Notes: a model not told the origin generated them from the sequence alone. Positions 2,757-30,817 are shown, counted from the first letter of the stretch. The stretch is 38,689 nt of DNA from Thermodesulfovibrionia bacterium (GCA_041478735.1 JBGOWS010000001.1:1-38689), one strand, 5' to 3'. A program made the numbers and translations.

Positions 2757-2772
2757 TGGCAGGAAAATTGCT
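2757..2772 (+). promoter_or_regulatory. Sigma-54 (RpoN) -24/-12 promoter candidate upstream of the sugar cassette
   Basis: TGGCAGGAAAATTGCT fits TGGCAC-N5-TTGCW with the correct GG-N10-GC spacing. It lies ~105 nt upstream of the ATG at 2877. Confidence 0.55.
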
Positions 2773-2876
2773 AATTTGCATATTATGAAAAAGTTATTGC
2801 TTTTTTTTCAGGTGTTCCAACATAAAGATGAGTAAAGGTTTAATAGCAGCACTATTAACGGGAGTGGAGCGCAATT

Positions 2877-4097
2877 ATGCCACAGTGTCTGGTCTGTAAA
2901 TACCATATAGCACCTTTCATGTCTTTTGGCAGGATGTCGCTGGCTAACGGCTTTCTCCCTGCAGATCGTTTTAGTGAGGAGTACTTCTTCGATCTGAGTG
3001 TTGCATTCTGCTCGAACTGTACGATGGTGCAATTGGTCGAACAGCCAGCACCTGAGAAGATGTTCCATGGTGAGTATGCTTTTTTTTCAGGAACATCATC
3101 AGGAATGGCCGCCCATTTCGAAAAGTTTGCTTCCCATGTTATTAAAGATTATCTTGGATCTGATGATCCATTTGTTGTTGAGATTGGATGTAATGACGGA
3201 ATAATGCTGAGACATTTCGCAGACACAGGAATAAGACATCTTGGCATTGAGCCCTCGGAGAATGTCGCAAAAGCTGCAAAGGCGCTGGGTGTGAAGACAA
3301 TTAGCCGTTTTTTTGATGAGGACCTATCGAGGGATATTGTTAGAGAGCATGGCAAGGCCGATGCATTTCTGGGTGCAAACGTTATGTGCCACATCGCGAG
3401 TATTAATTCTGTGATCCAGGGAATCAAAACGCTTCTGAAGCCGGATGGCGTTGCCATGTTTGAAGATCCATATCTTGGGGATGTTATCGAGAAGACTTCT
3501 TATGACCAGATATATGATGAGCACGTTTTCCTGTTTTCTGTCTCATCAATTCAATATGCCTTTAAACAGCACGGGATGGAATTGATCGATATCGAACCGC
3601 AGAGTACGCATGGGGGTTCTATGCGTTATGTGATCGCGCACAAGGGTGCCCGTAAAATCGCAGATTCCGTGTTTGAGCAGTTGGAAAAGGAGGCGGTACT
3701 TGGACTTAATCGGGCAACGACATATGATAGATTCAGGCGGAAGTGCGAGGAGTCGAGGGATGCGTTAAAGGCGATTTTGACAGGGCTCAATAGCGAGGGT
3801 AAGCGCGTTGTCGGGTATGCCGCGACATCGAAAAGTACGACGGTACTGAATTACTGCAACATCGACTCATCTCTTATTTCGTATATCAGCGATACAACAC
3901 CTATCAAACAGGGAAAGTATAGTCCGGGAGTGCATATTCCTGTGAGGCCTTATCAAGAATTTGTCTCAGACTATCCTGATTTTGCGCTTCTGCTTGCCTG
4001 GAATCATTCAGAAGAGATAATGGCCAAGGAGCAGAAATTCAGGGAAGCCGGTGGAAAGTGGATTGTCTTTGTGCCGGAGGTTAAGGTTCTGGAATGA
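2877..4097 (+). CDS. NDP-hexose C-methyltransferase (TylCIII-like; Zn-ribbon + class I SAM MTase + C-methyltransferase C-terminal domain)
   Basis: N-terminal CxxC...CxxC ribbon (MPQCLVCKY...[10 protein letters not shown]), SAM motif VVEIGCNDG, 406 aa, sugar-cluster context. RBS GGAG upstream. Confidence 0.75.
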
Positions 4098-5194
4098 TCT
4101 TGTGCGCAAATCCTTTAGCACAATATATTGCTCATAAAGAAGAAATTGATGCTTCTATTTCAAGGGTACTGAACAAGGGGTGGTATATTCTTGGTGAAGA
4201 GGTGAAGATGCTTGAGAAGGAGTTTGCTGAATACGTAGGCGTCTCATACGGAATCGGGGTGGGTAACGGGACTGATGCGCTTCATCTTGCGCTTGTGGCG
4301 TGCGGGATAGGCCCTGGCGATGAGGTGATAACTGTTTCTCATACGGCTGTTGCTACGGTATCTGCTATTGTAATGGCAGGGGCAACTCCGGTATTTGTGG
4401 ATATTGAACAAGATTATTATACTATGGATCCTTCCAGTCTTGAAGCTGCAATTACCTCGAAAACAAAGGCAATTATCCCTGTGCATCTCTATGGACAGCC
4501 TGCCGATATGGATCCGATTATGGCTATAGCAAAAAAACATGATTTATTAGTAATTGAAGACTGTGCACAGGCTCATGGGGCTATGTATAAGAATAAGCGC
4601 GTTGGTTCTTTCGGCTCAATGGCATGCTTCAGCTTTTACCCTACAAAGAATTTGGGGGCGCTCGGAGATGGTGGGATGGTTGTAACTAACGATGACTCCC
4701 TCGCCTCACGGTCCCGCTTACTTCGTGAATATGGATGGGTAGATCGTTATGTAAGCCATATAAAAGGGTGGAATACACGACTCGACGAAATCCAGGCGGC
4801 AGTGCTTAGGGTTAAATTACGGCATCTGGAGCAGGATAATAGCAAACGTATGCGGCTTGCTCAGATCTACGACAGAGGTTTATCCGAGATACCTGAAATC
4901 AGATTGCCCAAGAGACGGAAAGGTTCTATACACGTTTGCCATCTTTATGCAGTCAGATATAATAAAAGAAATGAACTAATCGCTTTTCTCAAAGAAAAAG
5001 ACATACAGGCACTTATACATTATCCGGAACCGGTGCATCTCCAGCCTGCATTTCTTGAATGTGTATGTGTTTCCAATTCACTCCGCGAGACCGAACATGT
5101 TGCGGAATCAGTGCTTTCGTTGCCTATTTATCCCGAGATAAATGATTCAGAAGTGCAAACGATTATTGATGTGCTGAGAGGATATTTTTCATGA
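4094..5194 (+). CDS. DegT/DnrJ/EryC1/StrS-family PLP-dependent sugar aminotransferase
   Basis: Motifs [21 protein letters not shown] and the PLP-lysine block [15 protein letters not shown]. The ATGA overlap with the upstream stop indicates translational coupling. Confidence 0.85.
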
Positions 5195-5937
5195 AAGGCC
5201 CCATATGGGAAGGGGTTTATGCTTCGTTTGTTGATGTCCCTGTAACTGGGCCGGGGTTTTCTGGAGAAATTTGGAGGAACAATTCACTAAAGAAGATTTC
5301 TCACTTTAGGGAGCTATCGGTAGCAGAACATTCTATACCACCTGTTACTATTAATCGTGACAGTCTTCTCCCAATCCTTACGGCGTTTGTAAGTGCGGAA
5401 GGCAGTTCTGTTGTCTTGCTCGATTATGGTGGAGGCATAGGATTCTCTTATTATCAGGTCCAGAGCTCTTTACCTGAAAGAGCAATCTTGAAGTTCCACA
5501 TAGTTGAACTTGAAGATGTTTGTCGAGTAGGCCGCGAGTTTTTTGTGGACACACCAAATATATTCTTTCATGAGTCTCTGCCAGATGTGTGGAGCCATTC
5601 CCTTCTGTTTAATGGAGTAATAAAGGCTTGGCATTTTCACCGTATACAGACTGACTGGTGGTATGTGGCAAGTGGGGTCCTGAGGGTTGGGTTATATGAC
5701 ATGCGGCCTGATTCGTCCACCTTTAAGAAGACCATGGATTTTCTTATGGGCGATTTGCAGCAGTCACAGGTCGTCAAGAAACCTCCGGGTGTAGCTCATG
5801 GATGTAAGACCATACAGGGACCTGTTAATTTGTTCTATGTTACCTCCCACGTCTATAATCCGGATGATGAGATTCGTATTGCTTACAATGATCCGGAGAT
5901 GAACTTTGACTGGCTCAAAGGGCCGGAAATCAAGTAA
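5191..5937 (+). CDS. Chimeric ORF: N-terminal part of a TIGR04325/LIC12133-type methyltransferase fused in frame to the C-terminal part of an RmlC-like cupin (dTDP-4-dehydrorhamnose 3,5-epimerase family)
   Basis: Residues 1-~132 ([10 protein letters not shown]...[13 protein letters not shown]...) resemble the methyltransferase N-terminus. Residues ~140-248 ([32 protein letters not shown]...PGVAHGC...[20 protein letters not shown]) resemble the RmlC C-terminal two thirds. ATGA overlap with the upstream gene. Confidence 0.6.
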
Positions 5938-6624
5938 ATGGTATCCAGGAATAAGCCGGATAACCTGCCACCTTCAATGCTCTTATGGGGTGGTACGGGA
6001 CAGGCCAAGGTTTTACGGCCACTCATAGAATATTACGGCTCAAAGGTTGTCGTGGTAATTGACGATACACCGGATATTCCCCCGCCTTTCCCTGACGTCC
6101 CGGTGTACTTCGGGTGGGATGGGTTTTATCAGTGGATAAAGGATCAGGACCGAAAAAAAATCGGTTTTTGTATAGCAATCGGGAATCCTCATGGGAGGGT
6201 AAGAATCTCGCTGCATGATTCGCTGAATGCTGAGGGGCTTTCACCTGTGACATTGGTTCATCCGGCTGCCTGGGTTGCCAAGAATGCGTTTATTGGAGAT
6301 GGATCGCAAGTTCTTGCCGGAGCAATTGTTGAGGCTGAAGCAAGCATCGGACGACAATGCATCATTAATACTAAGGCAAGCGTTGATCACGAGTGTATCC
6401 TTCATGATGGAGTGGAACTTGCACCTGGTGCAACGCTTTGTGGAATCGTCACAGCAGGAATAAATGCCTGGATATGTGCGGGTGCGATAGTGCTTCCGCG
6501 AATCAATATAGGTGCTGATGCGGTTATAGGTGCGGGTGCTGTTGTGACAAGGGATGTGCCGGAGGCAACAACGGTCGTAGGCGTTCCGGCAAGACCGTTG
6601 AATGCAGGAAAAAAGAAGGATTAG
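5938..6624 (+). CDS. NeuD/PglD/VioB-family sugar N-acetyltransferase (left-handed beta-helix)
   Basis: N-terminal Rossmann-like [11 protein letters not shown] followed by hexapeptide repeats ([13 protein letters not shown]...[13 protein letters not shown]). Starts 1 nt after the upstream stop (TAAATG). Confidence 0.8.
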
Positions 6625-6626
6625 AC

Positions 6627-7742
6627 ATGAAAAAGATTTTTATGGCAGGACCCTGGATAACTGAACACGAGATAAAAGTAGTCGAAGATGCCATGAAAAA
6701 TGGCTGGTACGAAAATGCTTACTACTATGTTGAAACGTTCCAGCGCGAGTTTGCGGAATATCATAGCCGAAGGTATGGCATTATGACCCCCAATTGCACC
6801 ACGGCAATCCATCTTCTTCTTACTGCCATGGGCATTAAGAAGGGAGACGAAGTCATTGTCCCTGAGTGCACATGGATTGCAACTGCCGCACCTATTACTT
6901 ATCTTAGGGCTACACCAGTTTTTTGCGATATTGATCCCGAACACTGGTGTCTCGATCCTCTTTCCGTTGAGAGGAATATTACAGAAAAGACGAAGGCTAT
7001 TATTGTTGTTGATCTTTACGGCAATATGCCGCTGATGGATGAGCTCTTGGAGATATCACACAAATATCGAATACCGCTTGTCGAAGATGCAGCTGAGGCC
7101 ATTGGATCGATTTATAAGGGAACACGCGCAGGAAAGTTCGGCATCGGATCTGTTTTTAGCTTTCACCGGACAAAGACTATCACCACAGGTGAAGGTGGGA
7201 TGTTGCTTCTTGATGATGCCACCTTGTATGAAAGATGTATGTTTTTGCGGGACCATGGGCGGGTCAAGGATATACCATACTACAATTCAGAAGTTACCTA
7301 TAAATATATGCCATTCAATCTGCAGGCTGCTCTTGGATATGCTCAGTTTCAGCGAATAGAGGAACTTGTTGGCAGGAAACGAGAACTCCTGAAAATGTAT
7401 AAAGAACGGCTGTCTGATATTGAAGACCTGCAGTTTAACTCTGAACCTGAGCATGTGCAAAATGGGGCATGGACCACGGCCCTCGTATTTGGGAAATCTC
7501 ATTGTATTACGAAGAAAGAAGCTATGAGACAGATAGAAGCTATGGGAATGCTAACCCGACCTTTTTTTTATCCGCTGTCTTCACTCCCAGCCTATCCCGG
7601 TTGCGGCCCAAAATATGAAGAACGTAATCCAATTGCATATGATATCTCAGACCGCGGAATCAATCTGTCCTGTGCTATGAACCTTACTGAAGACCAGATT
7701 CATGCTCAGTGTGACGCAATTAGAAAAATACTCGGCAGATAA
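6627..7742 (+). CDS. Second DegT/DnrJ/EryC1/StrS-family sugar aminotransferase
   Basis: PNCTTAIHLLL, EDAAEAIGS and the PLP-lysine block FSFHRTKTITTGEGG. RBS GAAGGA upstream. Confidence 0.85.
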   Translation: MKKIFMAGPWITEHEIKVVEDAMKNGWYENAYYYVETFQREFAEYHSRRYGIMTPNCTTAIHLLLTAMGIKKGDEVIVPECTWIATAAPITYLRATPVFCDIDPEHWCLDPLSVERNITEKTKAIIVVDLYGNMPLMDELLEISHKYRIPLVEDAAEAIGSIYKGTRAGKFGIGSVFSFHRTKTITTGEGGMLLLDDATLYERCMFLRDHGRVKDIPYYNSEVTYKYMPFNLQAALGYAQFQRIEELVGRKRELLKMYKERLSDIEDLQFNSEPEHVQNGAWTTALVFGKSHCITKKEAMRQIEAMGMLTRPFFYPLSSLPAYPGCGPKYEERNPIAYDISDRGINLSCAMNLTEDQIHAQCDAIRKILGR

Positions 7743-7762
7743 TACTTTTAGAAAGGAATGAT

Positions 7763-8773
7763 ATGAGTGAGCTTACATATATGAAATTGCCGGATCTTAA
7801 GGGAGCAAAAATACTGATAACCGGAGGGCTTGGCTTTATCGGGAGCAATCTTGCACATGCTTGCCTACAGCAGGGGGCAGAAGTATCGATTTTCGATTGC
7901 CTGGACCCCCATTCAGGGGGAAAGATTTATAATGTAATGGATATAAAGGACTCAGTTACTCTTTGCTTCCATGACATACTAAACTTCGATCAGGTGTCTC
8001 ATCATGTAAGCAGAAACGATATTATTATTAATTGTGCTGCTTCGACATCTCATCCTTTTTCAATGAGGGAGCCCTGGATCGATCTTGATGTTAACAGCAG
8101 AGGAGTTATCAACATATTGGAGGCCATTCGTAGATTCAATCGCAGGGGAAAGTTCATTCATATCGGCACGAGTACTCAGTTGGGAAGGTTACAATATCAA
8201 CCTGCTGACGAGAACCATCCCGAGTTCCCGACTGATATCTATTCAGCTAATAAGAGTGTTTCAGAAAAATATGTGCTTATATATGCGAATGCTTTTCAAT
8301 TGAGGGCGTCTGTTGTAAGATTGTCAAATGTCTTTGGCCCGAGAGCCAGCATACATAGTCCCGAATTTACTTTCAATAATTATTTCATCGGCCTTGCCCT
8401 GCAGGGAAAGGACATAACCGTATTCGGAGACGGGGCCCAAAAAAGAAACGCAATCTATGTCGACGATGTGGTCTCAGCTATTCTGATGGCGGCAAAGAGC
8501 GACTTGGTCGACGGTGAGACCCTCTTTGCAGTTAGCGATTACCATTATAGCGTTGCTAAGATTGCTGAGGAAACGGTTCGACATATGGGTTCAGGTAACG
8601 TCAAGTTCATAGAGTGGCCAAAAAGCAGAAAATCCATTGAAGTTGGCGACGCGATTCTAAGCAATAAGAAAGTCAGGAAGCTGCTGAACTGGTCGCCCGA
8701 GCATGACTTGGAAGCAGGTCTTTTAAAGACAAAGGCATTCTATGAGACATGTCTTGATGAATATCTGAGGTGA
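7763..8773 (+). CDS. NAD-dependent sugar epimerase/dehydratase (extended SDR)
   Basis: GGLGFIGSNL Rossmann motif and YSANK (YxxxK) catalytic motif. Confidence 0.8.
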   Translation: MSELTYMKLPDLKGAKILITGGLGFIGSNLAHACLQQGAEVSIFDCLDPHSGGKIYNVMDIKDSVTLCFHDILNFDQVSHHVSRNDIIINCAASTSHPFSMREPWIDLDVNSRGVINILEAIRRFNRRGKFIHIGTSTQLGRLQYQPADENHPEFPTDIYSANKSVSEKYVLIYANAFQLRASVVRLSNVFGPRASIHSPEFTFNNYFIGLALQGKDITVFGDGAQKRNAIYVDDVVSAILMAAKSDLVDGETLFAVSDYHYSVAKIAEETVRHMGSGNVKFIEWPKSRKSIEVGDAILSNKKVRKLLNWSPEHDLEAGLLKTKAFYETCLDEYLR

Positions 8774-8777
8774 AGAA

Positions 8778-9725
8778 ATGAAAATATTGATTACCGGGGC
8801 GCTTGGACATATAGGATCACGGCTGCTTCGTGACATTCCGAAGCTTCAGCCATGCGTCGAGATTATCATGATAGACAATATGATGACTCAGCGATATTCA
8901 TCTCTTTTTGACCTTCCGGAAGGGGGCACATATCATTTCATTGAAGATGATATTTTGACAGCCGATATATGGGCAGTGATGAATGGAGTCAATGTGGTTA
9001 TTCACCTCGCAGCTGTAACTGATGCGGCCAATAGCTTCAGGAACAAGGAACAGGTTGAGCATGTAAATTATAATGCTACTGCGAGAGTTGCTGAGGCCTG
9101 TTGTACTGCGGGAATACCTATGATCCATATTTCGTCTACAAGCGTATATGGAACTCAAAAAGAACTTGTAGATGAGACCTGCTCGCATGACGAACTCCAA
9201 CCACAGAGCCCTTATGCGGAGACAAAGCTGAAGGAGGAAAATCTGCTGAGAAATCTTGGTTTGTCGAAAGGGCTCCGGTTTATCTCGTGCCGGTTCGGGA
9301 CAATTGCCGGTACCTCGACTGGCATGCGCTTCCATACTGCTGTCAACAAGTTTTGCTGGCAGGCAGTTATGGGGCAGCCGCTTACTGTCTGGAGAACTGC
9401 CATGCACCAAAAGCGGCCTTATCTTTCTCTTGATGATGCAGTGAGGGCATTGATGTTTATAATTGATAGAGAGCTCTTTGATAACAGAGTCTACAACGTG
9501 CTGACTGAGAACCTGACGGTGCACGATATAGTCGAGTCTATAAAGCAGAGGGCCCCTGAACTTTTGGTTGGTTTTGTCGATGCCCAGATTATGAATCAGT
9601 TATCCTATGAAGTATCGAATAAGCGATTTAAAGACAAAGGTTTTAATTTTACCGGCAGTATCGACAGATGTATCGCTGATACTATCAGATTGATTGGTAA
9701 AGCAGGAGGAAACCGTGTCAGATAA
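8778..9725 (+). CDS. NAD-dependent sugar epimerase/reductase (extended SDR)
   Basis: GALGHIGSRL Rossmann motif and YAETK (YxxxK). RBS GAGGTG upstream. Confidence 0.8.
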   Translation: MKILITGALGHIGSRLLRDIPKLQPCVEIIMIDNMMTQRYSSLFDLPEGGTYHFIEDDILTADIWAVMNGVNVVIHLAAVTDAANSFRNKEQVEHVNYNATARVAEACCTAGIPMIHISSTSVYGTQKELVDETCSHDELQPQSPYAETKLKEENLLRNLGLSKGLRFISCRFGTIAGTSTGMRFHTAVNKFCWQAVMGQPLTVWRTAMHQKRPYLSLDDAVRALMFIIDRELFDNRVYNVLTENLTVHDIVESIKQRAPELLVGFVDAQIMNQLSYEVSNKRFKDKGFNFTGSIDRCIADTIRLIGKAGGNRVR

Positions 9726-10464
9726 GAAAATGTATACCCGCGAAGAGTTTGAGAACTTGCGCAAAGAGTCTGCACTGGCTATGGACGGGGATCAATCCAT
9801 TAGGGAAGAAGCGCTTAAAGTGCTGGTAAAGGCAGATCAATACCGGTGGATCCATCAAACCACCTGGCTTGGTGAGCCAATCCTCAATCTCCCCCAAGAT
9901 ATGTTTGCGATTCAGGAAATTATTTTCAGGACCAGGCCGAAATTTATTATAGAAGTTGGAGTTGCATGGGGAGGTTCTCTGTTATTCTACTCCACGCTTA
10001 TGGAGGCGCTCGGCGGTGAAAGAATTGTCGGCGTAGACCTATACATCCCTGAGGATCTGAAAGCCAGGCTCCTTTCGCACGGGAAACTGTCGGAGAGGAT
10101 TACCTTGATAAACGGATCATCAGTTGAAGAGGATACGCTCAGCAGAATTCAATCCATCATCGGTAATTCGCGCGATGTCATGATAATGCTGGACTCCTAT
10201 CATACCCACCAACACGTTCTCATGGAACTTAGGATGTATTCACCTCTAATCGGTATAGGGCACTATCTGATTTGCGGGGATACCATCCTTGAAGATATTC
10301 CACAGCAGGTGCACCGCCCACGGCCATGGGGACCGGGCAATAACCCAAAAACAGCCCTCAATGCGTTTCTGAAGGAGTCGGATCGCTTTGTCGTTGACGA
10401 AAGCATAGGTACAAAATTATTGTTCACCTGTAACCCGGGCGGGTATCTTCGGTGCGTACGATGA
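9715..10464 (+). CDS. CmcI/cephalosporin-hydroxylase-family SAM methyltransferase (sugar O-methyltransferase type)
   Basis: WIHQTTWLGEPILNLPQDMFAIQEIIF...IIEVGVAWGGS is the CmcI-family signature. GTG at 9715 lies 6 nt after AGGAGG (9703-9708). The track start at 9694 (TTG) and the ATG at 9730 are alternatives. Confidence 0.75.
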   Translation: MSDKKMYTREEFENLRKESALAMDGDQSIREEALKVLVKADQYRWIHQTTWLGEPILNLPQDMFAIQEIIFRTRPKFIIEVGVAWGGSLLFYSTLMEALGGERIVGVDLYIPEDLKARLLSHGKLSERITLINGSSVEEDTLSRIQSIIGNSRDVMIMLDSYHTHQHVLMELRMYSPLIGIGHYLICGDTILEDIPQQVHRPRPWGPGNNPKTALNAFLKESDRFVVDESIGTKLLFTCNPGGYLRCVR

Positions 10465-21730: not shown

Positions 21731-21747
21731 AAGTGCCCTCTTATGTG

Positions 21748-21780: not shown

Positions 21781-21796
21781 ACCCCGTGGCTTCTAT

Positions 21797-22969
21797 TTAT
21801 CCGAACAACCTCAGGACCGACTGTGCTGCCTGTGATGACAGACTCAGAGCTGTTGTGCTTAGAGCCTGACGTGTCTGGAGCATCAGCATATTTGCCCCTT
21901 CTTCGTTCATGTCTGCGAGCGTTAGTTTGTCCGCGCCCTCTGTAAGTGTCGCAACTAAGTTAGCAGTGAAATTGTCCTGTATTTCTATTATACTAAGGTT
22001 GGTGGCCAGCTTTGAGGCCTCTGATCTCAATAATGGGATTGCTGTTTCCAGTTTGCCGAGGTCCGTGCTGATTTCCGTATTCACACTCCATGCCCAGTTT
22101 TGGCCCGATGTAGTATCTGTGGCTGTCGAGCTCAGTGATAAATCACTTGCTGTTGCGCTGAATCCTTTAACTGATATTGCGCTGTTTTCAAAGGATACAT
22201 TCAGGTCTTCGTTCATCAAGAGATTTACGCCTTTGTATCCGGAAGAATTGGCAACAGCATCGATCTGATGCATGAGGCTGTTATACTGCTCTGACAGCGC
22301 CCTTCTCTCTGAAAAGACTGAATAGCCGTCAGTATCAGTTAGAACAGTTGCCTGCGCGCCGCTTTCATCATAAAAGCTGGTGTAATTCCCTTGCGTAATA
22401 GCTGTGTTGCTTGATTTTGCCTCGAGAACAAGTGTTGTCCCTGTAGCAGTTGCAACCATATCAGTAACCTCTGCTTGAGCGTTAATTAATGCTGCAAGGT
22501 TCGAAAGAGTAGTTTCAATGTCATTGGAATCAGCAACAAACTGTGTCGTAGGAGATGTAATAGCACCGGTTGTTGCAACAGCAGTATAAAGAGTGCCGCC
22601 TACGGTAACTGTGTTGGTGGATGATATAGACGTAAACTGAACCTTTATTTGGTTCTTGGCTGCTCCCTTTGCAGCTTGTGACAGAGCTTTTGCTGATTCA
22701 ATCAGGTCTGTGATGGATGAAATGCCTTTATCTGCAGCCTTGATGGTCTGGACCGACTCACCCATGCCTTCCTTGAGGGATGTGATATCATTTGCACGGC
22801 TCAGATGCGCGCGGGATGCAAAATAAGCAATCGGGTTATCAAGAGCAGAGTTGACCTTTTTGCCGGTTGCAAGGCGTCCCTGCGTTTTGTTTAAAAGATC
22901 AGATGTCTGCTGAAGATTTAATAGATTGGCCCGCATGCCAGTGGTTAAGGTAATATTATTGATAGCCAT
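21797..22969 (-). CDS. Flagellin
   Basis: Conserved N-terminus MAINNITLTTGMRANLLNLQQTSDLLNKTQGRLATGKKVNSALDNP and C-terminus ANMLMLQTRQALSTTALSLSSQAAQSVLRLFG. The central domain is Ser/Thr-rich. RBS AGGAG. Confidence 0.9.
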   Translation of the reverse strand: MAINNITLTTGMRANLLNLQQTSDLLNKTQGRLATGKKVNSALDNPIAYFASRAHLSRANDITSLKEGMGESVQTIKAADKGISSITDLIESAKALSQAAKGAAKNQIKVQFTSISSTNTVTVGGTLYTAVATTGAITSPTTQFVADSNDIETTLSNLAALINAQAEVTDMVATATGTTLVLEAKSSNTAITQGNYTSFYDESGAQATVLTDTDGYSVFSERRALSEQYNSLMHQIDAVANSSGYKGVNLLMNEDLNVSFENSAISVKGFSATASDLSLSSTATDTTSGQNWAWSVNTEISTDLGKLETAIPLLRSEASKLATNLSIIEIQDNFTANLVATLTEGADKLTLADMNEEGANMLMLQTRQALSTTALSLSSQAAQSVLRLFG

Positions 22970-23148
22970 GGTAATTCTCCTTTTCTATGAATATTTTTGG
23001 CAATTCTTGCCAAATTGTTTTTACTTTGCCGATAAAATCGGCGATTTTTCAATCAGTTACCATATCCTTATTCTTTGCCACCTCCTTTACCATATCCTTA
23101 TTCTTTGCCACCTCCTTTTGGACCTTAATCTTTTTTCATTTAACTTTT
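22970..23148 (-). promoter_or_regulatory. Flagellin 5' leader (~170 nt) with two hairpins and repeated GGA motifs
   Basis: Hairpins TTGGCAA-TTC-TTGCCAA (22997-23013) and GCCGAT-AAA-ATCGGC (23028-23042). The mRNA strand carries AAGGAGG/AAGGAU motifs in each 30-nt repeat unit and again at the SD. Confidence 0.5.
23057..23116. repeat. Perfect 30-bp tandem duplication inside the flagellin leader
   Basis: TTACCATATCCTTATTCTTTGCCACCTCCT at 23057-23086 is repeated exactly at 23087-23116. Confidence 0.95.
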
Positions 23149-23175
23149 ATATCGGACATTTTTCTTAAAACTTTA
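23149..23175 (-). promoter_or_regulatory. Sigma-28 (FliA) promoter for flagellin
   Basis: The minus strand reads TAAAGTTT-N11-TCCGATAT against the consensus TAAAGTTT-N11-GCCGATAA. Confidence 0.7.
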
Positions 23176-23212
23176 GGCCTTTGTGCAAAAATATTAGTCA
23201 TTCAGTAGAGGA

Positions 23213-23358
23213 TCTTGCAAAAGTATCAAATGTTCACCCTCCCCAACCCCTCCCATCAAGGGAGGGGGACACACCCCTACACCCCTCTCAAGAGGGGATT
23301 TACCCTCTCCCCTTGTGGGAGAGGGCAAGAGTGAGGGGTAAAATAGACTTTTGCAAGA
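23213..23358. repeat. Second copy of the G/C-rich palindromic REP-like element family
   Basis: Terminal inverted repeat CTTGCAAAAGT / ACTTTTGCAAG. The core TTCACCCTCCCCAACCCCTCCCATCAAGGGAGGGGG is homologous to the 20321-20358 unit. Extra hairpins CCCCTC/GAGGGG and CCCTCTCCC/GGGAGAGGG. Confidence 0.8.
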
Positions 23359-23440
23359 GCCTCAGTATATATATACATATTCTGACTCCAAAGGTTTGTA
23401 GATAATCATGCAGTATATTTTTACACTTATAAAAGTACCT

Positions 23441-23467
23441 TAAAGTTTTTTTGAAATATTCCGATAA
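23441..23467 (+). promoter_or_regulatory. Sigma-28 (FliA) promoter for the small-ORF / c-di-GMP / motAB operon
   Basis: TAAAGTTT-N11-TCCGATAA, 15 of 16 consensus positions. It is divergent from the flagellin promoter. Confidence 0.7.
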
Positions 23468-23778: not shown

Positions 23779-24357
23779 GTGGATAAAAAAGACTTTAAGA
23801 TACTTGTTGCAGACGATGATGAGATAGTGCGTGATGTTATAAGTTCCCTTCTTTCAAGGGAAGGGTACTCTGTTGTGGCAGCGAGGGATGGGTTTGATGC
23901 CATAAGGATCCTCAGGGTTGAAGATATAAGCCTTGTTATAACCGATCTTAGAATGCCAGGCACCGACGGCCTTGAAGTGCTCAGGTATGCTGTAAGAAAC
24001 AACCCTGACATTACGGTTGTTCTGCTTACAGCATACGGAACCCTGGATACTGCACTTGAAGCAATAACAGAGGGAGCATATGATTACCTGACAAAACCAT
24101 TCAAGGTTCAGGAGATAATTATCCTCGCAGAAAAGATATTTAAAAGGTCTGAATTGATATATGAAAACAGGGAGTTGAAGAAACATCTCAGGGATACCTA
24201 TCGTGACATTAATCTTATAAAGACAGTCGCCGGGAGCAACAATCCCGAGATAACAACAGCCTGTATAGAGAGAATAGAAAGGTTAAAGACGATGAATATC
24301 CTGACAAACCAGGAAGCAGATATCTTAAAGGAAAGGCTGGTTAAAGGAAATGGTTAA
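23779..24357 (+). CDS. Response-regulator receiver protein (REC + ~70-aa helical tail)
   Basis: ILVADDDE...LVITDLRMPGTDG...LLTAYG...YDYLTKPF are canonical CheY-like motifs. GTG start without a clear SD, so the start is uncertain. Confidence 0.8.
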   Translation: MDKKDFKILVADDDEIVRDVISSLLSREGYSVVAARDGFDAIRILRVEDISLVITDLRMPGTDGLEVLRYAVRNNPDITVVLLTAYGTLDTALEAITEGAYDYLTKPFKVQEIIILAEKIFKRSELIYENRELKKHLRDTYRDINLIKTVAGSNNPEITTACIERIERLKTMNILTNQEADILKERLVKGNG

Positions 24358-25834
24358 GGGAAAGATATTAATAGTTGATGATGACCCTACGGTCAGAGAT
24401 ATCCTCTCAGATATCCTCTCCGATATCGGCGGCTATAAGATAGATTTTGCCCTCAATGGTCTTGATGGGATGGAAAAGATCAAAAACAATGAATTCGATA
24501 TTATCTTTACAGACCTGACAATGCCGAAGATGAACGGCATGGACCTTTTAAGAGAGACCAAAGGTATTAGCCCCCTCACTCCTGTAGTTGTGATAACCGG
24601 CTTTTCATCTGTGGAAACTGCGATAAACGCAATGAAAGAAGGCGCCTGTGATTTTATAACAAAGCCATTTAAGCTTGATAAGGTAATCTCCGTAGCAGAC
24701 AGAATAATTGGCGAGAGAAGGCTTTTAAGCAACATTGCAATAAAAGGCGATTATGAAGCTTCCATAGGAAAGCTGAATGCAGCGCTTTATAAAAAACTCC
24801 AGGAGATAAGTATTCTTCAGTCCATAAGCACTGAGCTTGACGGATTATATGACAATAAAGAGATATACGAGCGGATTGTGGAGATGACATCAAGACTCCT
24901 TATGGTGAAGGAGTCATCCTTTGGCATCATCGAAAATGGCTATCTAAAAATAAAAAGTTCAATAGGGGTTAGTGGAAAAAATATTCCCATTGCTAACAGT
25001 ATTTTTGAGAATGTAATGAAAAGCAAAAATTATTACACAGCCTCATTTGGGGAAATTAACCCCCTCAATGGAATCCCCCTTACCTCTTCCTTTCTTTCAA
25101 TTCCCCTTGCTATAAATAACGAGGTTTTCGGAATTTTGAACGTCTCAAACAAGGCAGATGGAACCACATTTATGGATGATGAGATATACCTTGCACTCAC
25201 CTTTGCTAAAAAGGCAGCCCTGAGGATAGAAAACAATGCCCTCTATGAGGTCCTTTACTCTAATCTGATGGATACATTGAAATCGCTGGTCATCAGTATC
25301 GAGGCCCGAGATATTTATATAAAACATCATTCAGAAAGGGGCACTTCATATTCCCTTGAGATTGCAGATGTAATGAACCTCAGCGAGTATGACAGGGATG
25401 CCATAAAGTTCGGCGGTTATCTCCACGACATAGGCAAGATAGGTGTGAGAGACACTGTTTTACTAAAGCCTGACAGGCTTTCCGATGAGGAAATGACTGA
25501 GATAATGCAGCACCCTGTTATTGGAGATAATATAATGAAGCCCATAAAGTTTTTCTCGAAGGAAAAGGGACTTATCCGGCACCACCATGAGAGGTTTGAC
25601 GGCAAAGGGTATCCCGATGGGATTGCAGGCAATGATATCCCTCTCATAGTGCGGATTCTCACTGTCGCTGATGCCTATGATGCCATGACCTCGTCAAGAC
25701 CGTATAGAGCTTCAAGAACTCACGCTTATGCAATAGAAGAATTGAAAAGATACTCTAATTCTCAGTTTGACGGAGAAGTTGTCCGCGCCTTTTTACAAAC
25801 ACCTTCAGGAATGGGCAAAAAATATGGGGCTTAA
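24350..25834 (+). CDS. REC-GAF-HD-GYP response regulator (RpfG-type c-di-GMP phosphodiesterase)
   Basis: REC motifs (ILIVDDDP, IIFTDLTMPKMNG, FITKPF), a central GAF-like region, HD (YLHDIGKIG) and HHERFDGKGYPDG (GYP) motifs. Confidence 0.85.
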   Translation: MVKGKILIVDDDPTVRDILSDILSDIGGYKIDFALNGLDGMEKIKNNEFDIIFTDLTMPKMNGMDLLRETKGISPLTPVVVITGFSSVETAINAMKEGACDFITKPFKLDKVISVADRIIGERRLLSNIAIKGDYEASIGKLNAALYKKLQEISILQSISTELDGLYDNKEIYERIVEMTSRLLMVKESSFGIIENGYLKIKSSIGVSGKNIPIANSIFENVMKSKNYYTASFGEINPLNGIPLTSSFLSIPLAINNEVFGILNVSNKADGTTFMDDEIYLALTFAKKAALRIENNALYEVLYSNLMDTLKSLVISIEARDIYIKHHSERGTSYSLEIADVMNLSEYDRDAIKFGGYLHDIGKIGVRDTVLLKPDRLSDEEMTEIMQHPVIGDNIMKPIKFFSKEKGLIRHHHERFDGKGYPDGIAGNDIPLIVRILTVADAYDAMTSSRPYRASRTHAYAIEELKRYSNSQFDGEVVRAFLQTPSGMGKKYGA

Positions 25835-26585
25835 ATCGGGAGAGGATATTTATTACAGGACAATGTCATCGCTGGAACGGCATGTTGCAACGGTAGTCTC
25901 TATAACTGATGAAGACATCCTCCTTCGAGTTCATCCTGGTCTGCCGACCGGTATTTCGAAGGGACAACGTATAGTAATCTCATGTAAAGACCTTGATTGC
26001 CATACCGAGGTTATCGGCATAGAAGGAAATATCCTAACCTTTAAAAGGATATGGTCAGGAAAACGTGAATATTTTCGTGCGGATGACTTCCTTCCTGTGC
26101 TAGCAACAAAGGCAATGTATGATCCATCTTGCAGGAAATCAAAGGTCTTTCTCGGATATAATATGGAGATAACTGATATGGAAGCGCCTGATGAGACAAT
26201 AAATCCACGCCTGTGGAAGATGCTCGTCGAGATCAACACCAAATTAGGATTGATACTGGAAAGGCTTCAGCTGGAGAGCGAGGGATTCACAAAGGGTGAA
26301 AATAAACAGGTGAATATCAGCGAATCAGGAATGAGATTTATAATGAACGAAAGGGTCGAGGCAGGAGATGTTCTTGAGATAAAATTACTTTTGTCCTCAT
26401 CTCCTCCTTTGGGAATACTCACATATGGAAATGTTGTAAGGGTAAATAATATTGGAGATGGTAAATATGAGGTTGCTTTACATTTTTCTGATATGGATGA
26501 TGAGGTGAGGGAAGAGATAAGCAAGCATATCCTTAAGCGCCAGAGAGGGATTATAAAGAAGCAGTTGCAGCAGATTGAACGGTGA
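25824..26585 (+). CDS. PilZ-domain c-di-GMP receptor with an N-terminal beta-barrel (YcgR-like architecture)
   Basis: RxxxR (REYFR) and (D/N)xSxxG (NISESG) c-di-GMP-binding motifs in the correct order. The start is ambiguous among 25767, 25824 and 25863. Confidence 0.7.
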   Translation: MGLKSGEDIYYRTMSSLERHVATVVSITDEDILLRVHPGLPTGISKGQRIVISCKDLDCHTEVIGIEGNILTFKRIWSGKREYFRADDFLPVLATKAMYDPSCRKSKVFLGYNMEITDMEAPDETINPRLWKMLVEINTKLGLILERLQLESEGFTKGENKQVNISESGMRFIMNERVEAGDVLEIKLLLSSSPPLGILTYGNVVRVNNIGDGKYEVALHFSDMDDEVREEISKHILKRQRGIIKKQLQQIER

Positions 26586-26638
26586 GGATAGGAATTTACA
26601 CGCATAAGGGAGGAAAAGAGAAGTGAGGTCTGAGGAGT

Positions 26639-28114
26639 ATGGCAGAGGCGATGAAAAATAAGATACTATTCATTGATGATAACCTTTCTAACCATGAACT
26701 TATAAACACGGCCTTCATGAGGCACGGGAACAATTCCCTTCTGCTATTCCTGACATCTGCAGAGGCTGGACTTGGTATCCTAAAAAAGGAAGCAGTAAAG
26801 GCCGTTTTTGTCAACCAGTACCTTCCCGGTAAAGATGGCTTTGATTTCCTGAAAGAATTAAAGAGCCTGAAGATACAGGTACCTGTGATTATGCTGATAT
26901 CAGGCGAAGATAAAACTGTTGTTCAAAAGGCAATCAGGGAAGGCGCAAATGATTGGGTAATAAATGATGCCAGATATTTTGATAGCCTTCCTTTCGTTCT
27001 CGATTGTGCTATTGCCAGATACGATCTCGATAGGGAAAGGACAGAGAGTGGAAGGTTAATAATTGAAAGCCATCATCAGTGGATGGCTCTTATAGACGGC
27101 ATAACAGATTTCGTATTTATAACGGACGAAGAATTAAGAATATTCAAGGCAAATCGTGCGCTGGCAACGGCATTTGGTAAGAACCCTAAAGATATTTTAG
27201 GCATTAAATGTCATGAGTTATTGGGTATAGATTTATCAAAGGCGCTAAGCCCCTCTATAGAGAATAGTCTTCCACATGCAGAAGAGAGAACCATAAATAA
27301 TGAGACATATCTGATAAGCTCGTTCCCTTTGCATTACAACAATATGCCTTTGACCATTCATCTGATGAAAAATATCACAGAGATAAGAAGAATGAAAGAG
27401 CAGCTCTACCATTCTTATAAACTTGCATCGCTCGGCCTTCTTGTTTCTGGTGTTGCCCATGAGATTAACAACCCGCTTACAGGAGTAATTACCTACACAG
27501 AGCTTCTCAGGATGAAGGTCATGAACGAAGAGATTAAATGGGGATTGAAAAAGATACTTGAGAGCGCTGAAAGATGTAAAAAGGTTGTTGAAAACCTGCT
27601 TACATTTTCCAGACAGAGGATGCCTTCAAAGAGTCTTGAGTCAATAAATGATCTTATTGATAGGACTATAGACCTCAGGATTTACTGGCTGAGGAAAAAT
27701 AATATCGAGATTGTGAAGGAATACGGGGAACTTCCTACTCTTTTAGTCGACTCTCAACAGTTACAACTGGCTATACTCAATGTCCTTCTCAATGCCGAAC
27801 AGGCGATCGGCTCAAATATAAATAACGGCATGGTTACATTTAGCACAAGGTATGACAAGGAAAAGCATAAGGTAATAATAAAGATTTCTGACAATGGCCC
27901 CGGAATTCCACAAGATATAATCTCAAAGATATTCGACCCATTCTTTACCACAAAGCCTGTGGGTACTGGAACAGGGCTTGGACTTTCCATATCCCACGGC
28001 ATAATTGCCGAACATGAAGGCAACATAAGAGTCGAAAGCTCTGAGGGAAAGGGCGCCACCTTCTTCATAGAACTCCCCCAGAAACCTAAGAATGTCACTG
28101 AAATAGGCTATTAA
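26639..28114 (+). CDS. Histidine kinase: receiver-like domain lacking the acceptor Asp + PAS + HisKA + HATPase
   Basis: H-box VAHEINNPLTG, N-box LLNAEQA, G1 DNGPGI, G2 GTGLGLS. The N-terminal REC-like domain has FVNQYLPGKDG where receivers have xxD. Confidence 0.8.
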   Translation: MAEAMKNKILFIDDNLSNHELINTAFMRHGNNSLLLFLTSAEAGLGILKKEAVKAVFVNQYLPGKDGFDFLKELKSLKIQVPVIMLISGEDKTVVQKAIREGANDWVINDARYFDSLPFVLDCAIARYDLDRERTESGRLIIESHHQWMALIDGITDFVFITDEELRIFKANRALATAFGKNPKDILGIKCHELLGIDLSKALSPSIENSLPHAEERTINNETYLISSFPLHYNNMPLTIHLMKNITEIRRMKEQLYHSYKLASLGLLVSGVAHEINNPLTGVITYTELLRMKVMNEEIKWGLKKILESAERCKKVVENLLTFSRQRMPSKSLESINDLIDRTIDLRIYWLRKNNIEIVKEYGELPTLLVDSQQLQLAILNVLLNAEQAIGSNINNGMVTFSTRYDKEKHKVIIKISDNGPGIPQDIISKIFDPFFTTKPVGTGTGLGLSISHGIIAEHEGNIRVESSEGKGATFFIELPQKPKNVTEIGY

Positions 28115-28115
28115 T

Positions 28116-28973
28116 ATGTTCGTTATTATAGGTATACTTGTAGTTATAGGCTCTGTCGTATTCGGTTTCTTAATGGAGAAGGGCAACCTTTATGTTCTTT
28201 TCCAGCCTGCAGAGTTTGTTATCATATTCGGCGCTGCAATCGGCTCTTTTCTCATATCCTCTCCACCAAAGGTTATGGGCGCTGTTATCAAGGACATTAC
28301 CTCAATTATGAACTCGAAGAATCAGAACAAGGAAAAATATCTTGAACTTCTCACGCTCCTCTACCAGTTATTCTCAAAGATACGGAAGGGGGGCCTTATA
28401 TCAATAGAATCCGACATCGAGAATCCTGATAAGAGCGCTATCTTTAACAGGTATAGCAGTGTCATGACAAATCATCATATCGTTAACTTTATATGTGATA
28501 CCCTTAAGGTGATTATAACAACAAATGTCCCTCCACATGAACTCGATAACTTAATGGAACTCGAGATCGAAACCAATTACCAGGATGCTATGGTCCCATC
28601 CAATAGCATCGCAAAGGTAGCGGATGCACTGCCGGGACTCGGTATTGTTGCGGCGGTTCTGGGTGTTGTCCTCACTATGGGCAAGATTGACCAGCCTCCT
28701 GCTGTACTCGGCCATAGCATAGGGGCTGCCCTTGTGGGAACATTTATTGGGGTATTAATGTGCTATGGCTTTGTAGGCCCAATAGCAACAAATCTTGAAC
28801 ATAGGGTACAGGAAGGTAGCGTATGTTTTCAGATCATAAAAATAGCGTTGGTAGCGTTTGTTGGAGGTTCACCACCCCAGATGGCAGTTGAGTTCGCTAG
28901 AAGGGCGATACCGGGGAAAGAGAGACCGACCTTTGATGAACTGGAAAACGCTGTGATGGGAAGGGCAAAATGA
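28116..28973 (+). CDS. motA: Flagellar stator protein MotA
   Basis: Four TM segments, the MotA/TolQ/ExbB channel region (LPGLGIVAAVLGVVLTMG...ALVGTFIGVLMCYGF), and a position immediately upstream of motB. Confidence 0.85.
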   Translation: MFVIIGILVVIGSVVFGFLMEKGNLYVLFQPAEFVIIFGAAIGSFLISSPPKVMGAVIKDITSIMNSKNQNKEKYLELLTLLYQLFSKIRKGGLISIESDIENPDKSAIFNRYSSVMTNHHIVNFICDTLKVIITTNVPPHELDNLMELEIETNYQDAMVPSNSIAKVADALPGLGIVAAVLGVVLTMGKIDQPPAVLGHSIGAALVGTFIGVLMCYGFVGPIATNLEHRVQEGSVCFQIIKIALVAFVGGSPPQMAVEFARRAIPGKERPTFDELENAVMGRAK

Positions 28974-29743
28974 AGGAAACCAAGATCATTATTAAAAAGG
29001 TTAAAAAACGGAGCGAAAAAGGTAGTCATGGTGGGCAATGGAAGGTTGCATATGCAGACTTTGTTACAGCCTTGATGGCATTCTTCCTGCTTCTGTGGCT
29101 CATATCAATGATCGCGCCGGAAAAGAGGGCAAGGGTTGCTCACTATTTTAAGCACTTTACCATATTCGAACGGAGCGGCCAATCCTTCATGGATAAATCA
29201 AGTGAAGTCTTTAATGAGGCAGGCGAAGCAGCCAAAAAGGTCCCTCATGAATTACAAGGGACATATAATGTAAAACCCGAGGAATTTAAAGAGTCAATAA
29301 GGAAGGCTATAGAAGAGAAACTCGGAGACATAAAGGATCAGATAATTGTGGATATGTTTGAAGGCGGGGTTCGTATTCAACTTGTAGACATAGAAGGCAG
29401 GCCTATGTTTGACCTTGGTTCATCAAAACCAACACCCCTTGCCATAAGAATATTGCAGGTAATTGGAGATAACATCAAACCCCTCCCTAATCCTGTCGCC
29501 ATAGAGGGTCATACTGATTCATTAATATATAGACACACAAGTTATAGCAACTGGGAACTCTCCACAGAGCGCGCACTAACAGCAAGAAAGGAACTGGAAA
29601 GATATGGGCTTGACCCGGCTCGCCTCACAAGGGTTGCAGGCTATGCAGATACAGTGCCCTTTATAAAGGAAGACCCGAGAGACCCAAGGAATAGAAGGAT
29701 AAGCATAATACTCATGTTTCAAATGCGTGAAGGAGAACCCTGA
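28970..29743 (+). CDS. motB: Flagellar stator protein MotB (OmpA-like peptidoglycan-binding C-terminus)
   Basis: WKVAYADFVTALMAFFLLLW plug/TM region with the conserved Asp. C-terminal IEGHTDS...SNWELSTERA...R OmpA-like motif. ATGA overlap with motA. Confidence 0.85.
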   Translation: MKETKIIIKKVKKRSEKGSHGGQWKVAYADFVTALMAFFLLLWLISMIAPEKRARVAHYFKHFTIFERSGQSFMDKSSEVFNEAGEAAKKVPHELQGTYNVKPEEFKESIRKAIEEKLGDIKDQIIVDMFEGGVRIQLVDIEGRPMFDLGSSKPTPLAIRILQVIGDNIKPLPNPVAIEGHTDSLIYRHTSYSNWELSTERALTARKELERYGLDPARLTRVAGYADTVPFIKEDPRDPRNRRISIILMFQMREGEP

Positions 29744-30811: not shown

Positions 30812-30817
30812 TAATTA

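Follow-up and report, generated by a model that had tools for sequence, protein, structure and literature searches.

Layout of the flagellar region

The stretch of DNA analysed here (38,689 nt, Thermodesulfovibrionia bacterium, GCA_041478735.1, JBGOWS010000001.1:1-38689; hereafter the window) carries a contiguous flagellar region of 27 kb at positions 2757-29743. An earlier note on this DNA had read there a sigma-54-type promoter, eight sugar-tailoring genes, a giant glycosyltransferase gene, a REP-like element, a convergent flaF-flbT-orf161-flagellin group, divergent sigma-28 promoters with a second REP-like element, and a run of signalling genes ending in motA and motB. Open reading frame (ORF) listing and profile searches confirmed this order from the sigma-54 motif to motB, with all seven items in place: every gene was matched by profiles, and the sigma-54 motif and both sigma-28 motifs were recovered. 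The block is composed of three predicted transcription units, namely the sugar genes with the giant glycosyltransferase gene (unit 1), the flagellin-orf161-flbT-flaF operon (unit 2), and the operon running from a small ORF to motAB (unit 3, the signalling/stator operon). The features of the three units are as follows.

2757-2772, plus strand: sigma-54-type -24/-12 promoter motif TGGCAG-N5-TTGCT, with 105 nt between it and the first sugar gene
2877-10464, plus strand: sugar-tailoring cassette of eight co-directional genes, whose stops and starts mostly overlap or abut
10452-20273, plus strand: giant modular glycosyltransferase, one ORF of 3273 aa with six GT2 domains, one GT-B-like domain, one SAM-methyltransferase domain and five TPR blocks
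20312-20437: REP-like element 1, two GC-rich hairpins (CCCTCCCCC..GGGGGAGGG) between the convergent glycosyltransferase and flaF genes
20479-20859, minus strand: flaF (Pfam PF07309, 114.2 bits against a cutoff of 23.6, profile positions 3-113 of 113)
20831-21238, minus strand: flbT (Pfam PF07378, 151.3 bits against a cutoff of 27, profile positions 1-125 of 125)
21245-21730, minus strand: orf161, a new family, between flagellin and flbT
21797-22969, minus strand: flagellin (Flagellin_N 34.2 against 26.6, Flagellin_C 24.9 against 23)
22970-23141, minus strand: flagellin 5' untranslated region (UTR), about 170 nt, with an AAGGAGG motif and two hairpins, one variable (23026-23044) and one conserved (22996-23014)
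23149-23175, minus strand: predicted sigma-28 promoter of the flagellin operon, TAAAGTTT-N12-CCGATAT
23213-23358: REP-like cluster 2, three CCCTCCC..GGGAGGG hairpins (hairpins at 23235-23330)
23441-23467, plus strand: predicted sigma-28 promoter of the signalling/stator operon, TAAAGTTT-N11-TCCGATAA
23509-23706, plus strand: small ORF of 65 aa, DVU0524-like ("FlgM-associated" family; NF041863, 29.9 bits, below cutoff)
23779-24357, plus strand: REC protein (Pfam)
24350-25834, plus strand: REC-GAF-HD-GYP protein (HD_5, 110.8 bits)
25767-26585, plus strand: PilZ protein (PilZ, 40.8 bits against a cutoff of 22.5, residues 181-255)
26639-28114, plus strand: REC-PAS-HisKA-HATPase histidine kinase (Pfam)
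28116-28973, plus strand: motA (NCBIfam TIGR03818, 393 against a cutoff of 303.8)
28970-29743, plus strand: motB (MotB_plug and OmpA matches; PRK09041, 239, below the cutoff of 277)

DNA near-identical to the window (99.9%), including the debris on the right flank, was found in JGI, Logan and NCBI metagenome-assembled genome (MAG) assemblies that stem from six or more samples; the JGI contig (Ga0534152_0000097) covers window positions 2095-32590. Look-ups of the exact CysK and MotB proteins gave no record. The host is probably an uncultured member of the Nitrospirota (Thermodesulfovibrionales-like), judging from the best genome matches of the HD-GYP gene, which were three Nitrospirota MAGs at 70% (Thermodesulfovibrionales), 58% and 51% identity. 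A literature search found no account of such a cluster in Thermodesulfovibrio or Nitrospirae. We read the 27-kb region as a native chromosomal "late flagellar" supercluster of three conserved units, with strain-specific insertion sequence (IS) and REP debris around and inside it, and give this reading a probability of roughly three in four.

Conservation of the three units and the question of movement

A scan of metagenome contigs for the orf161 family with a 14-sequence alignment yielded 31 loci at 29-96% identity (a 44-sequence alignment was too diverse), and synteny among loci, designated here by numbers with the prefix L, was compared by tblastn with all window proteins. The order flagellin-orf161-flbT-flaF was invariant in every one of the 31 loci long enough to show order. 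Downstream, a convergent TPR-GT2 giant followed flaF in 14 of the 16 loci with at least 1.9 kb of sequence on that side, as single ORFs of 1262-2813 aa. Upstream, the divergent signalling/stator operon stood beside the flagellin unit in four loci (L092, L101, L105 and L110) out of 14 with at least 2 kb on that side. Loci without this operon had housekeeping neighbours there: genes for UPF0182, alanine dehydrogenase, an OYE-type oxidoreductase and a transglycosylase in one case, and in others greA, pyrD and mlaEF or an SLT-LysM transglycosylase gene. The sugar genes beyond the glycosyltransferase varied among loci, and only CmcI-like and DegT-like homologues recurred. No IS was detected at the compared positions in relatives by tblastn with the window IS proteins, only selected flanking ORFs having been profile-searched.

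The signalling/stator operon is kept at 50-73% identity in seven loci (L013, L004 and L005, which are from Nitrospirota MAGs, and L101, L105, L092 and L110). In L013 it is 70% identical. Defence genes flank it there on one side, together with genes for a sigma-54 activator and a TPR protein, and tauE, ileS and lspA flank it on the other; there is no flagellin within 10 kb. In L004, a Nitrospirae MAG, it is 58% identical and comes directly after genes for a GT2 enzyme, UDP-galactopyranose mutase (Glf), a canonical flagellin, flaG, fliD and fliS, and in L005 its identity is 51%. A locus of Syntrophorhabdus (L018) starts with a radical-SAM gene, a nucleotidyltransferase gene and a gene for a Maf (MptE-like) plus TPR glycosyltransferase, then has flagellin, flbT and flaF, a FliD-like gene and an unassigned ORF, and ends with REC, REC-GAF-HD-GYP, PilZ, motA and motB genes, followed by mutS2 and dnaG. 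In function this order agrees with that of the window, and it is placed between sugar genes and mutS2-dnaG. The Maf plus TPR enzyme (921 aa, L018 positions 3748-6513) is encoded where the lineage of the window has the GT2-TPR giant. The type of glycosyltransferase is thus swapped in L018 and the layout of the locus kept. The packaging of filament, glycosylation, regulators, signalling and stator that had been proposed for the window is supported, as their co-location recurs in distant lineages and is not an accident of one genome.

That the package may also have moved as one block, as the earlier note suggested, found no such backing: the modules recur apart and next to housekeeping genes in relatives, the composition is native, the borders share no repeats and no integrase was found. 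The GC content of the block is 0.436 against 0.40 in both flanks. In tetranucleotide composition, the sugar, glycosyltransferase and signalling parts correlate with the cysE-cysK flank at 0.82-0.91, values as high as those among the block's own parts, and the short flagellin segment at 0.67. The only compositional outliers were the first GT2 module of the giant glycosyltransferase (GC 0.368) and a stretch at 33-35 kb outside the block. On these grounds the region largely looks like an ordinary core locus, with native composition and with IS and REP debris specific to this population and its closest relative. The debris on the two flanks includes the following features.

2-1860, plus strand: complete IS1634-family element (transposase 149-1810); the window begins at its left inverted repeat
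1885-1998 (114 bp): nearly perfect palindrome with 26-nt arms, 92% complementary, and a 62-nt spacer, directly right of IS1634
about 2055-2135, minus strand: transposase-like C-terminal remnant of 33 aa
2251-2529, plus strand: DruA/DUF4338 fragment (Pfam)
29749-33047: right-flank debris with an IS3/rve fragment, comM, DUF433 and its partner, a DUF2281-like ORF and a tmRNA-like sequence
30052-30502: frameshifted C-terminus of comM
30569-30811: DUF433 gene, with a truncated partner ORF downstream
within 29749-33047: DUF2281-like ORF
32478-32786, plus strand: degenerate full-length tmRNA-like sequence (RF00023, 15.1 bits against a gathering threshold of 47)

On the left, the IS1634 element and the DUF4338 fragment previously described were both recovered, the former by NCBIfam NF033559 (293.7 bits against a cutoff of 100), a Pfam DDE_Tnp_1 match and terminal inverted repeats at 2-22 and 1840-1860. 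The supposed IS1 fragment could not be verified. Only the 33-aa remnant was found at 2055-2135, and its tblastn matches were unannotated multi-copy hypothetical ORFs on plasmids. The JGI assembly breaks at 2095, about 100 nt past the palindrome at 1885-1998. On the right, the IS3 fragment (a weak match), the comM fragment and the broken DUF433 pair stood. The "orphan tRNA half" turned out to be the 3' end of the degenerate tmRNA-like sequence, of which only the 5' end and the 3' T-arm/acceptor-CCA end align well, which has no tag frame and which does not qualify as a tmRNA under RF00023; ARAGORN called no tRNA or tmRNA in the window. A direct repeat, CGTGATAAAATCGTGA (at about 32604 and 32836), flanks the 3' part of this sequence, and the JGI contig end (32590) falls inside it. 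The stretch 29749-33047 is collinear at 99.9% in an NCBI MAG contig (L121) and the JGI contig (L120). After the tmRNA-like sequence come a low-GC kinase-like gene, cysE, cysK and an ISL3 fragment. The low-GC stretch (0.33-0.35, 33000-35000) contains this APH-like kinase gene and, 418 nt upstream of the gene, the second sigma-54-type motif of the window (TGGCATTAAGTTTGCT, 34498-34513, minus strand).

Such surroundings might be taken to mean that the 27-kb block was gained or transposed whole, as a genomic island or a composite mobile unit, with the IS and toxin-antitoxin debris marking its ends. An intact IS1634 element lies on the left, and IS3, comM and toxin-antitoxin fragments lie on the right together with the degenerate tmRNA-like sequence, tmRNA genes being classical integration sites. 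A like layout in two phyla (Nitrospirota-like, and Syntrophorhabdus in L018) is compatible with ancient lateral transfer, and this type of flagellin, FlaF and FlbT is otherwise alphaproteobacterial (PMC4347634). However, the left border has IS1634 and the right one a fragment of a different family, IS3; the two have neither direct or inverted repeats nor an att-like duplication in common, and profile searches of the window found no integrase or recombinase. In repeats, IS match, integrase and composition the block does not conform to a genomic island or composite transposon. Its composition is like that of the cysE-cysK flank, and the island-like low-GC stretch is located outside the block, to the right of the tmRNA-like sequence. 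The modules occur apart and beside housekeeping genes, as the adjacency in four of 14 loci and the L013 operon without flagellin show, and protein identities of 30-75% across loci indicate a long vertical residence of each module. Because the composition is native, the borders are unrelated, an integrase is absent and the modules are separable, movement of the block is unsupported, and we consider an island origin unlikely.

Several points nevertheless weigh against a native supercluster of conserved units. The chromosomal context varies among distant relatives, and the long contigs available for comparison of the block all come from the population of the window itself, none being at 80-95% identity. 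The nearest relative, L084 (90% nucleotide identity), is collinear with window positions 20236-23420. Its positions 1-420 diverge at window position 23420, 20 nt before the -35 element of the small-ORF promoter, and past this point it has further REP units and an N-terminal fragment of an IS66-like transposase (motif only). Because of this divergence, rearrangement does occur at the junction of units 2 and 3, and in L084 these two units may be disrupted or no longer adjacent. Within unit 1, the N-terminal GT2 module of the giant glycosyltransferase (10452-11561) has a GC content of 0.368 and a GC3 of 0.324 against 0.42-0.48 in the rest of the gene, suggesting that the gene is a mosaic assembled by module accretion, and profile searches found no nucleotidyltransferase in the eight-gene cassette. 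Within unit 3, the PilZ protein has no YcgR N-domain recognisable by Pfam and no PDB sequence match. Finally, the lineage assignment is based on best matches to a single operon, and every mechanism proposed below is based on homology and gene context.

Proposed functions of the three units

The cassette of unit 1 encodes, according to Pfam, a C-methyltransferase, a DegT aminotransferase, an RmlC-like cupin/isomerase, an N-acetyltransferase of the NeuD/PglB/VioB type, a second DegT aminotransferase, two SDR dehydratase/epimerases and a CmcI-type O-methyltransferase. The N-acetyltransferase matched NCBIfam TIGR03570 (188 bits against a cutoff of 160.8), and the NCBIfam matches to TIGR04325 and rmlC were partial. 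No nonulosonic-acid synthase was found among the eight genes by profile searches. From these enzyme families, the cassette would make an amino-deoxyhexose donor that is aminated, N-acetylated, and C- and O-methylated.

The domains of the giant glycosyltransferase were mapped by cutting the ORF into ten pieces for profile search. Its N-terminal part consists of GT2 (residues 10-121), TPR (375-510), SAM-methyltransferase (about 610-710), GT-B-like (925-1060) and GT2 (1091-1310) domains. In its C-terminal part the unit [GT2, TPR, GmaR-like GT2, TPR] occurs twice, at residues 1376-2345 and 2346-3273, and the two copies share 57% identity over 871 aa, with 71% identity between their DNA sequences. 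The glycosyltransferase domain of GmaR (PDB 22ao) aligned to residues 2867-3063 with an E-value of 1.4e-32 and to residues about 1896-2085 with an E-value of 5.5e-30. The DxD motif is kept in these GmaR-like domains (DADE aligned to GmaR DADE) and a TPR block comes after each, so that the protein has the GmaR-type arrangement of a homologous GT2 domain with DxD followed by TPR. The GmaR-like domains also gave weaker matches to the peptide S-glycosyltransferase SunS. Searched alone, the N-terminal GT2 domain resembled chain-extending enzymes (chondroitin synthase, GalT1 and SpsA), and the three remaining non-GmaR GT2 domains gave generic GT2 matches only. No MptE-like (Maf) domain was matched in the protein, the sole GT-B-like piece being Glyco_trans_1_2 at 925-1060; the protein is thus not of the FlmG/Maf type. 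A Pfam FlbT match (7e-5) inside one of the TPR blocks was weak and was taken as spurious.

It is known that GmaR O-GlcNAcylates flagellin and that the TPR repeats after its glycosyltransferase domain have been proposed as a flagellin dock (PMC9638930), and in Caulobacter the TPR domain of FlmG is necessary and sufficient for binding flagellin (PMC7591256). From the GmaR homology and the adjacency to flaF in 14 of 16 loci, we infer that the giant glycosyltransferase transfers sugar to Ser/Thr residues of flagellin. It would act as an assembly line, whose TPR blocks bind flagellin in the manner of FlmG and, as has been suggested, of GmaR, whose two GmaR-like GT2 domains attach the first sugar to Ser/Thr, and whose remaining GT2, GT-B-like and methyltransferase domains extend and methylate the glycan. 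The domain homologies themselves are demonstrated at the sequence level; the roles given here to the domains are putative.

The same genes could instead serve lipopolysaccharide O-antigen, exopolysaccharide or S-layer synthesis, their adjacency to flagellin having no functional meaning. GT2, SDR, DegT and NeuD-type enzymes are generic polysaccharide genes, and the N-terminal GT2 domain does resemble polymer-building enzymes. However, the operon has no flippase, polymerase, initiating phosphoglycosyltransferase or membrane domain, two of its glycosyltransferase domains are specifically like a flagellin protein O-glycosyltransferase, and its combination of TPR and glycosyltransferase domains is that of FlmG and GmaR. 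The convergent glycosyltransferase gene also stays beside flaF in 14 of 16 loci while other neighbours change, and L018 has a flagellin-specific Maf enzyme in the same position. A role in another glycoconjugate therefore seems improbable to us, and flagellin remains the preferred substrate.

The sigma-54-type motif was matched twice in the whole window, the match at 2757-2772 being one of the two. In 348 kb of related loci it was matched only twice (L107 and L089), both times before the first gene of the glycosyltransferase operon. Because the motif was matched in relatives only at the start of this operon, an expression tier earlier than that of flagellin is suggested: the glycosylation genes (sigma-54) would be expressed one tier before their substrate flagellin (sigma-28). 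The sigma-28 consensus TAAAGTTT-N11-12-CCGATAx had exactly two matches in the window, in divergent orientation, against 0.10 expected by chance. An equivalent motif is located 130-180 nt upstream of flagellin in relatives (about 19 loci), and the motif also precedes the small ORF or fliS in L005, L092 and L101. The sigma-54 and sigma-28 motifs probably act as promoters here.

The flagellin operon (20479-22969, minus strand) is convergent with the giant glycosyltransferase gene. The flaF product belongs to the FlaF family over its full length (NCBIfam PRK12794, 129 against a cutoff of 91). The flbT product, whose gene overlaps flaF and comes after flagellin and orf161, scored 136.5 with NCBIfam PRK12791, under the equivalog cutoff of 153, and is assigned to FlbT by its Pfam match and gene context. 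Among NCBIfam models, PRK12688 and PRK14708 came nearest to the flagellin (E 3.6e-55), which has the N- and C-terminal D0/D1 regions. An identity of this 390-aa protein as FlgL was rejected, the FlgL models giving 1e-4 against 1e-55 for the flagellin models.

Across the lineage, the flagellin 5' UTR combines an AAGGAGG motif, a variable hairpin and, about 20 nt 5' of the Shine-Dalgarno sequence, a near-invariant hairpin NNGGCAAGAA(U)UGCCNN, which in the window is UUUGGCAAGAAUUGCCAAA (22996-23014), about 20 nt before the Shine-Dalgarno sequence. Pairing in this hairpin is 95.4%, and its two outer pairs alternate between C-G and U-A in seven compensatory cells. None of 500 shuffles reached the observed values, slid controls gave 43% at most, and RNAalifold independently predicted the same hairpin. 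Across 116 loci, the core motif GGCAAGAA(N)TGCC was present in 20, each with a single copy, and every copy precedes the flagellin ATG. The hairpin is absent from L018, whose locus has no orf161. Rfam gave no family at gathering score in the window and no match at all on the flagellin UTR. A perfect 30-nt tandem duplication (23057-23116, minus strand) doubles the AAGGAGG motif; both the window and L001 have this duplication, and L084 does not.

In Caulobacter, FlbT binds the flagellin 5' UTR (PMC4347634) and acts with a flagellin paralog as a 5'UTR-dependent translational repressor, while FlaF is a secretion chaperone (PMC7591256, PMC4347634). By analogy, FlaF would be the secretion chaperone of the flagellin in the window, and FlbT would repress flagellin translation through the 5' UTR until the export apparatus is ready. 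FlbT-type translational control is thus a candidate mechanism for this flagellin mRNA, and the conserved hairpin is a candidate operator for FlbT and/or the orf161 product. The latter had no Pfam or NCBIfam match, and its family comprises only 75 cluster representatives (50% cluster level) in 1.84 billion proteins. Its structure as predicted by AlphaFold (pLDDT 64) consists of a disordered N-terminal region of 46 residues and a four-helix core. A PDB sequence search gave nothing below an E-value of 0.19, and Foldseek no match with an E-value below 0.07, the best one, four-helix Bpa, being judged uninformative. Profile comparison with the FlaG and FliS of L004 was negative for either identity (probability 0.1). 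We speculate that the orf161 product is a lineage-specific fourth partner, maybe an exported co-regulator.

Both intergenic regions bordering the flagellin operon contain CCCTCCC..GGGAGGG units (at 20330, 23241 and 23298, with further copies in L084), which have the features of REP/MITE-like elements. Element 1 looks like a bidirectional terminator between the convergent operons. In the 90%-identical L084 (3367-3382), 15 nt stand in place of its 139 nt, and the Logan contigs L002 and L003 end inside it, suggesting that these palindromic units are mobile or unstable. Inverted repeats of 12 nt (23213-23224 and 23347-23358) enclose cluster 2. Rfam matches in it were sub-threshold only (engA RNA, 28.6 bits against 46). 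The orientation of its inner 122 bp differs between assemblies that are at least 99.9% identical, the flanking 3.3 kb having no mismatches. Orientation A was found in the window, the JGI contig (L001/L120) and one Logan run (L118), and orientation B in the NCBI MAG (L117/L121), two Logan runs (L119 and L122) and the relative L084. The orientation co-varies with the length of a TA repeat (GTATATATATAC versus GTATATATAC) and with nested hairpin insertions. Because of these linked differences, the two forms look like haplotypes and not like demonstrated fast switching.

An invertible segment at this position could be a dedicated phase-variation switch, whose orientation would determine how strongly the filament operon is expressed relative to the stator operon. 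The 122-bp segment between inverted repeats, its presence in both orientations in assemblies 99.9% identical elsewhere (A in three assemblies, B in three and in L084), the unitig breaks at cluster 2 in several runs and its position 38 nt upstream of the -35 element of the flagellin promoter would agree with such a function. On the other hand, there is no invertase gene nearby, and no promoter motif was noted on reading the segment (no separate scan was made), both sigma-28 promoters being outside it. The link to TA-repeat length and nested insertions gives the two forms the look of fixed haplotypes, the hairpins are quasi-palindromic so that inversion alters little sequence, and similar REP units are inserted or absent elsewhere. 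We consider such a switch unlikely, and strain-specific REP debris is the preferred reading of cluster 2.

In unit 3, the HD-GYP domain has intact motifs (HD at residue 359 and HHERFDGKGYP at 412-422, with GYP at 420), as in the phosphodiesterase family. The PilZ protein has the motifs KREYFR (RxxxR) and NISESG (NxSxxG), about 75 aa apart as read from the translation, and MotA and MotB belong to the stator families by their domains. From this domain set and the precedents of YcgR and MotI, a motor-control chain may be proposed. Phosphoryl transfer from the REC-PAS histidine kinase to the REC proteins would switch the HD-GYP phosphodiesterase, cyclic di-GMP (c-di-GMP) would fall and the brake would be released; the brake itself would be the c-di-GMP-bound PilZ protein, which would brake or declutch the co-transcribed MotAB. 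In three relatives, a second divergent stator pair (motA2/motB2) is encoded between the PilZ and kinase genes (L013 12762-14210, L101 4156-5746 and L105 1534-2982), a position that corresponds to a gap of 53 nt (26586-26638) in the window.

Comparison with known systems and significance

The locus is a variant of known systems, namely FlaF/FlbT control, flagellin glycosylation of the GmaR/FlmG type and PilZ/HD-GYP motor control, and not a new kind. As in Caulobacter crescentus, homologues of FlaF and FlbT are encoded beside an alphaproteobacterial-type flagellin, and a TPR-bearing cytoplasmic glycosyltransferase is encoded alongside. The predicted order of glycosylation before flagellin also has a counterpart there, where FlmG accumulates before FlaF (PMC7591256). 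The differences are numerous. The host of the window is not an alphaproteobacterium, its locus has no pseudaminic-acid pathway and a single flagellin gene without an FljJ-like paralog, and the conserved orf161 is added between flagellin and flbT. The promoters are of the sigma-28 and sigma-54 types, in place of cell-cycle control by CtrA and FlbD. The giant glycosyltransferase has GT2 domains (GT-A fold, GmaR-like) whereas FlmG is GT-B, and with eight catalytic domains it is more than five times larger.

With the GmaR of Listeria monocytogenes, a GT2 flagellin O-GlcNAc transferase with TPR, two domains of the giant glycosyltransferase align (E 1e-30 to 1e-32) and share the TPR that follows each (PMC9638930). 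Unlike in GmaR, the GmaR-like domain forms part of a GT2-TPR-GT2-TPR unit that is repeated, and the likely donor is a modified deoxy-amino-hexose and not GlcNAc. No anti-repressor domain was identified beyond the glycosyltransferase and TPR regions, no dedicated alignment having been made, and no mogR-like gene was seen in the window.

The PilZ protein, encoded in one operon with MotAB and bearing the RxxxR and NxSxxG motifs, is reminiscent of the YcgR and MotI brakes, and the REC-(GAF)-HD-GYP protein with its intact HD and GYP motifs is like RpfG-type REC-HD-GYP proteins. In enterics ycgR is sigma-28 dependent, as is predicted for the signalling/stator operon. In contrast to YcgR, the PilZ protein lacks the N-domain and has an insertion of about 65 aa, and we do not claim YcgR-family membership for it. 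In contrast to all three systems (YcgR, MotI and RpfG), the window has a kinase, two REC proteins, a phosphodiesterase, an effector and a stator in a single operon.

The flagellin UTR also recalls CsrA-FliW control of Bacillus hag and Campylobacter flaA, as it has the GGA-containing AAGGAGG at two places, the Shine-Dalgarno sequence and a site upstream, and also has a hairpin, an arrangement formally like that of two-site CsrA operators (PMC4894983). However, no csrA or fliW is found in the locus, the encoded regulators being FlbT and FlaF, and the invariant loop of the hairpin is AGAA(U) and not GGA.

What is moderately new here is a non-alphaproteobacterial FlaF/FlbT unit with orf161 and an RNA hairpin, the modular giant glycosyltransferases, and a REP segment present in both orientations. 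A bolder joint reading of the three, which we offer as tentative and regard as somewhat doubtful, is that unit 2 is an undescribed, non-alphaproteobacterial form of export-coupled translational control of flagellin, that the giant glycosyltransferases are single-polypeptide assembly lines, and that REP inversion tunes the sigma-28 operons. If this were true, the orf161 product, whose disordered N-terminus is typical of substrates of flagellar export, would take the place that a flagellin paralog has as co-repressor in Caulobacter; the giant TPR-GT2 proteins would build a multi-sugar, methylated O-glycan directly on flagellin; and the invertible REP cluster would add strain-level tuning of both sigma-28 operons.

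For the study of such loci, the window illustrates that IS and REP debris around a locus is no evidence that the locus moved. To our knowledge, Alphaproteobacteria are the only group in which FlaF and FlbT have been studied experimentally. The present loci extend the FlaF/FlbT system past the Alphaproteobacteria to Nitrospirota-like and Syntrophorhabdus lineages, and provide it with a concrete RNA operator candidate and a putative new protein partner, orf161. They also indicate a class of very large modular flagellin glycosyltransferases of 1.3-3.3 thousand residues built with GmaR-like units, and a recurrent wiring of a full c-di-GMP circuit (kinase, phosphodiesterase and PilZ) into the stator operon.

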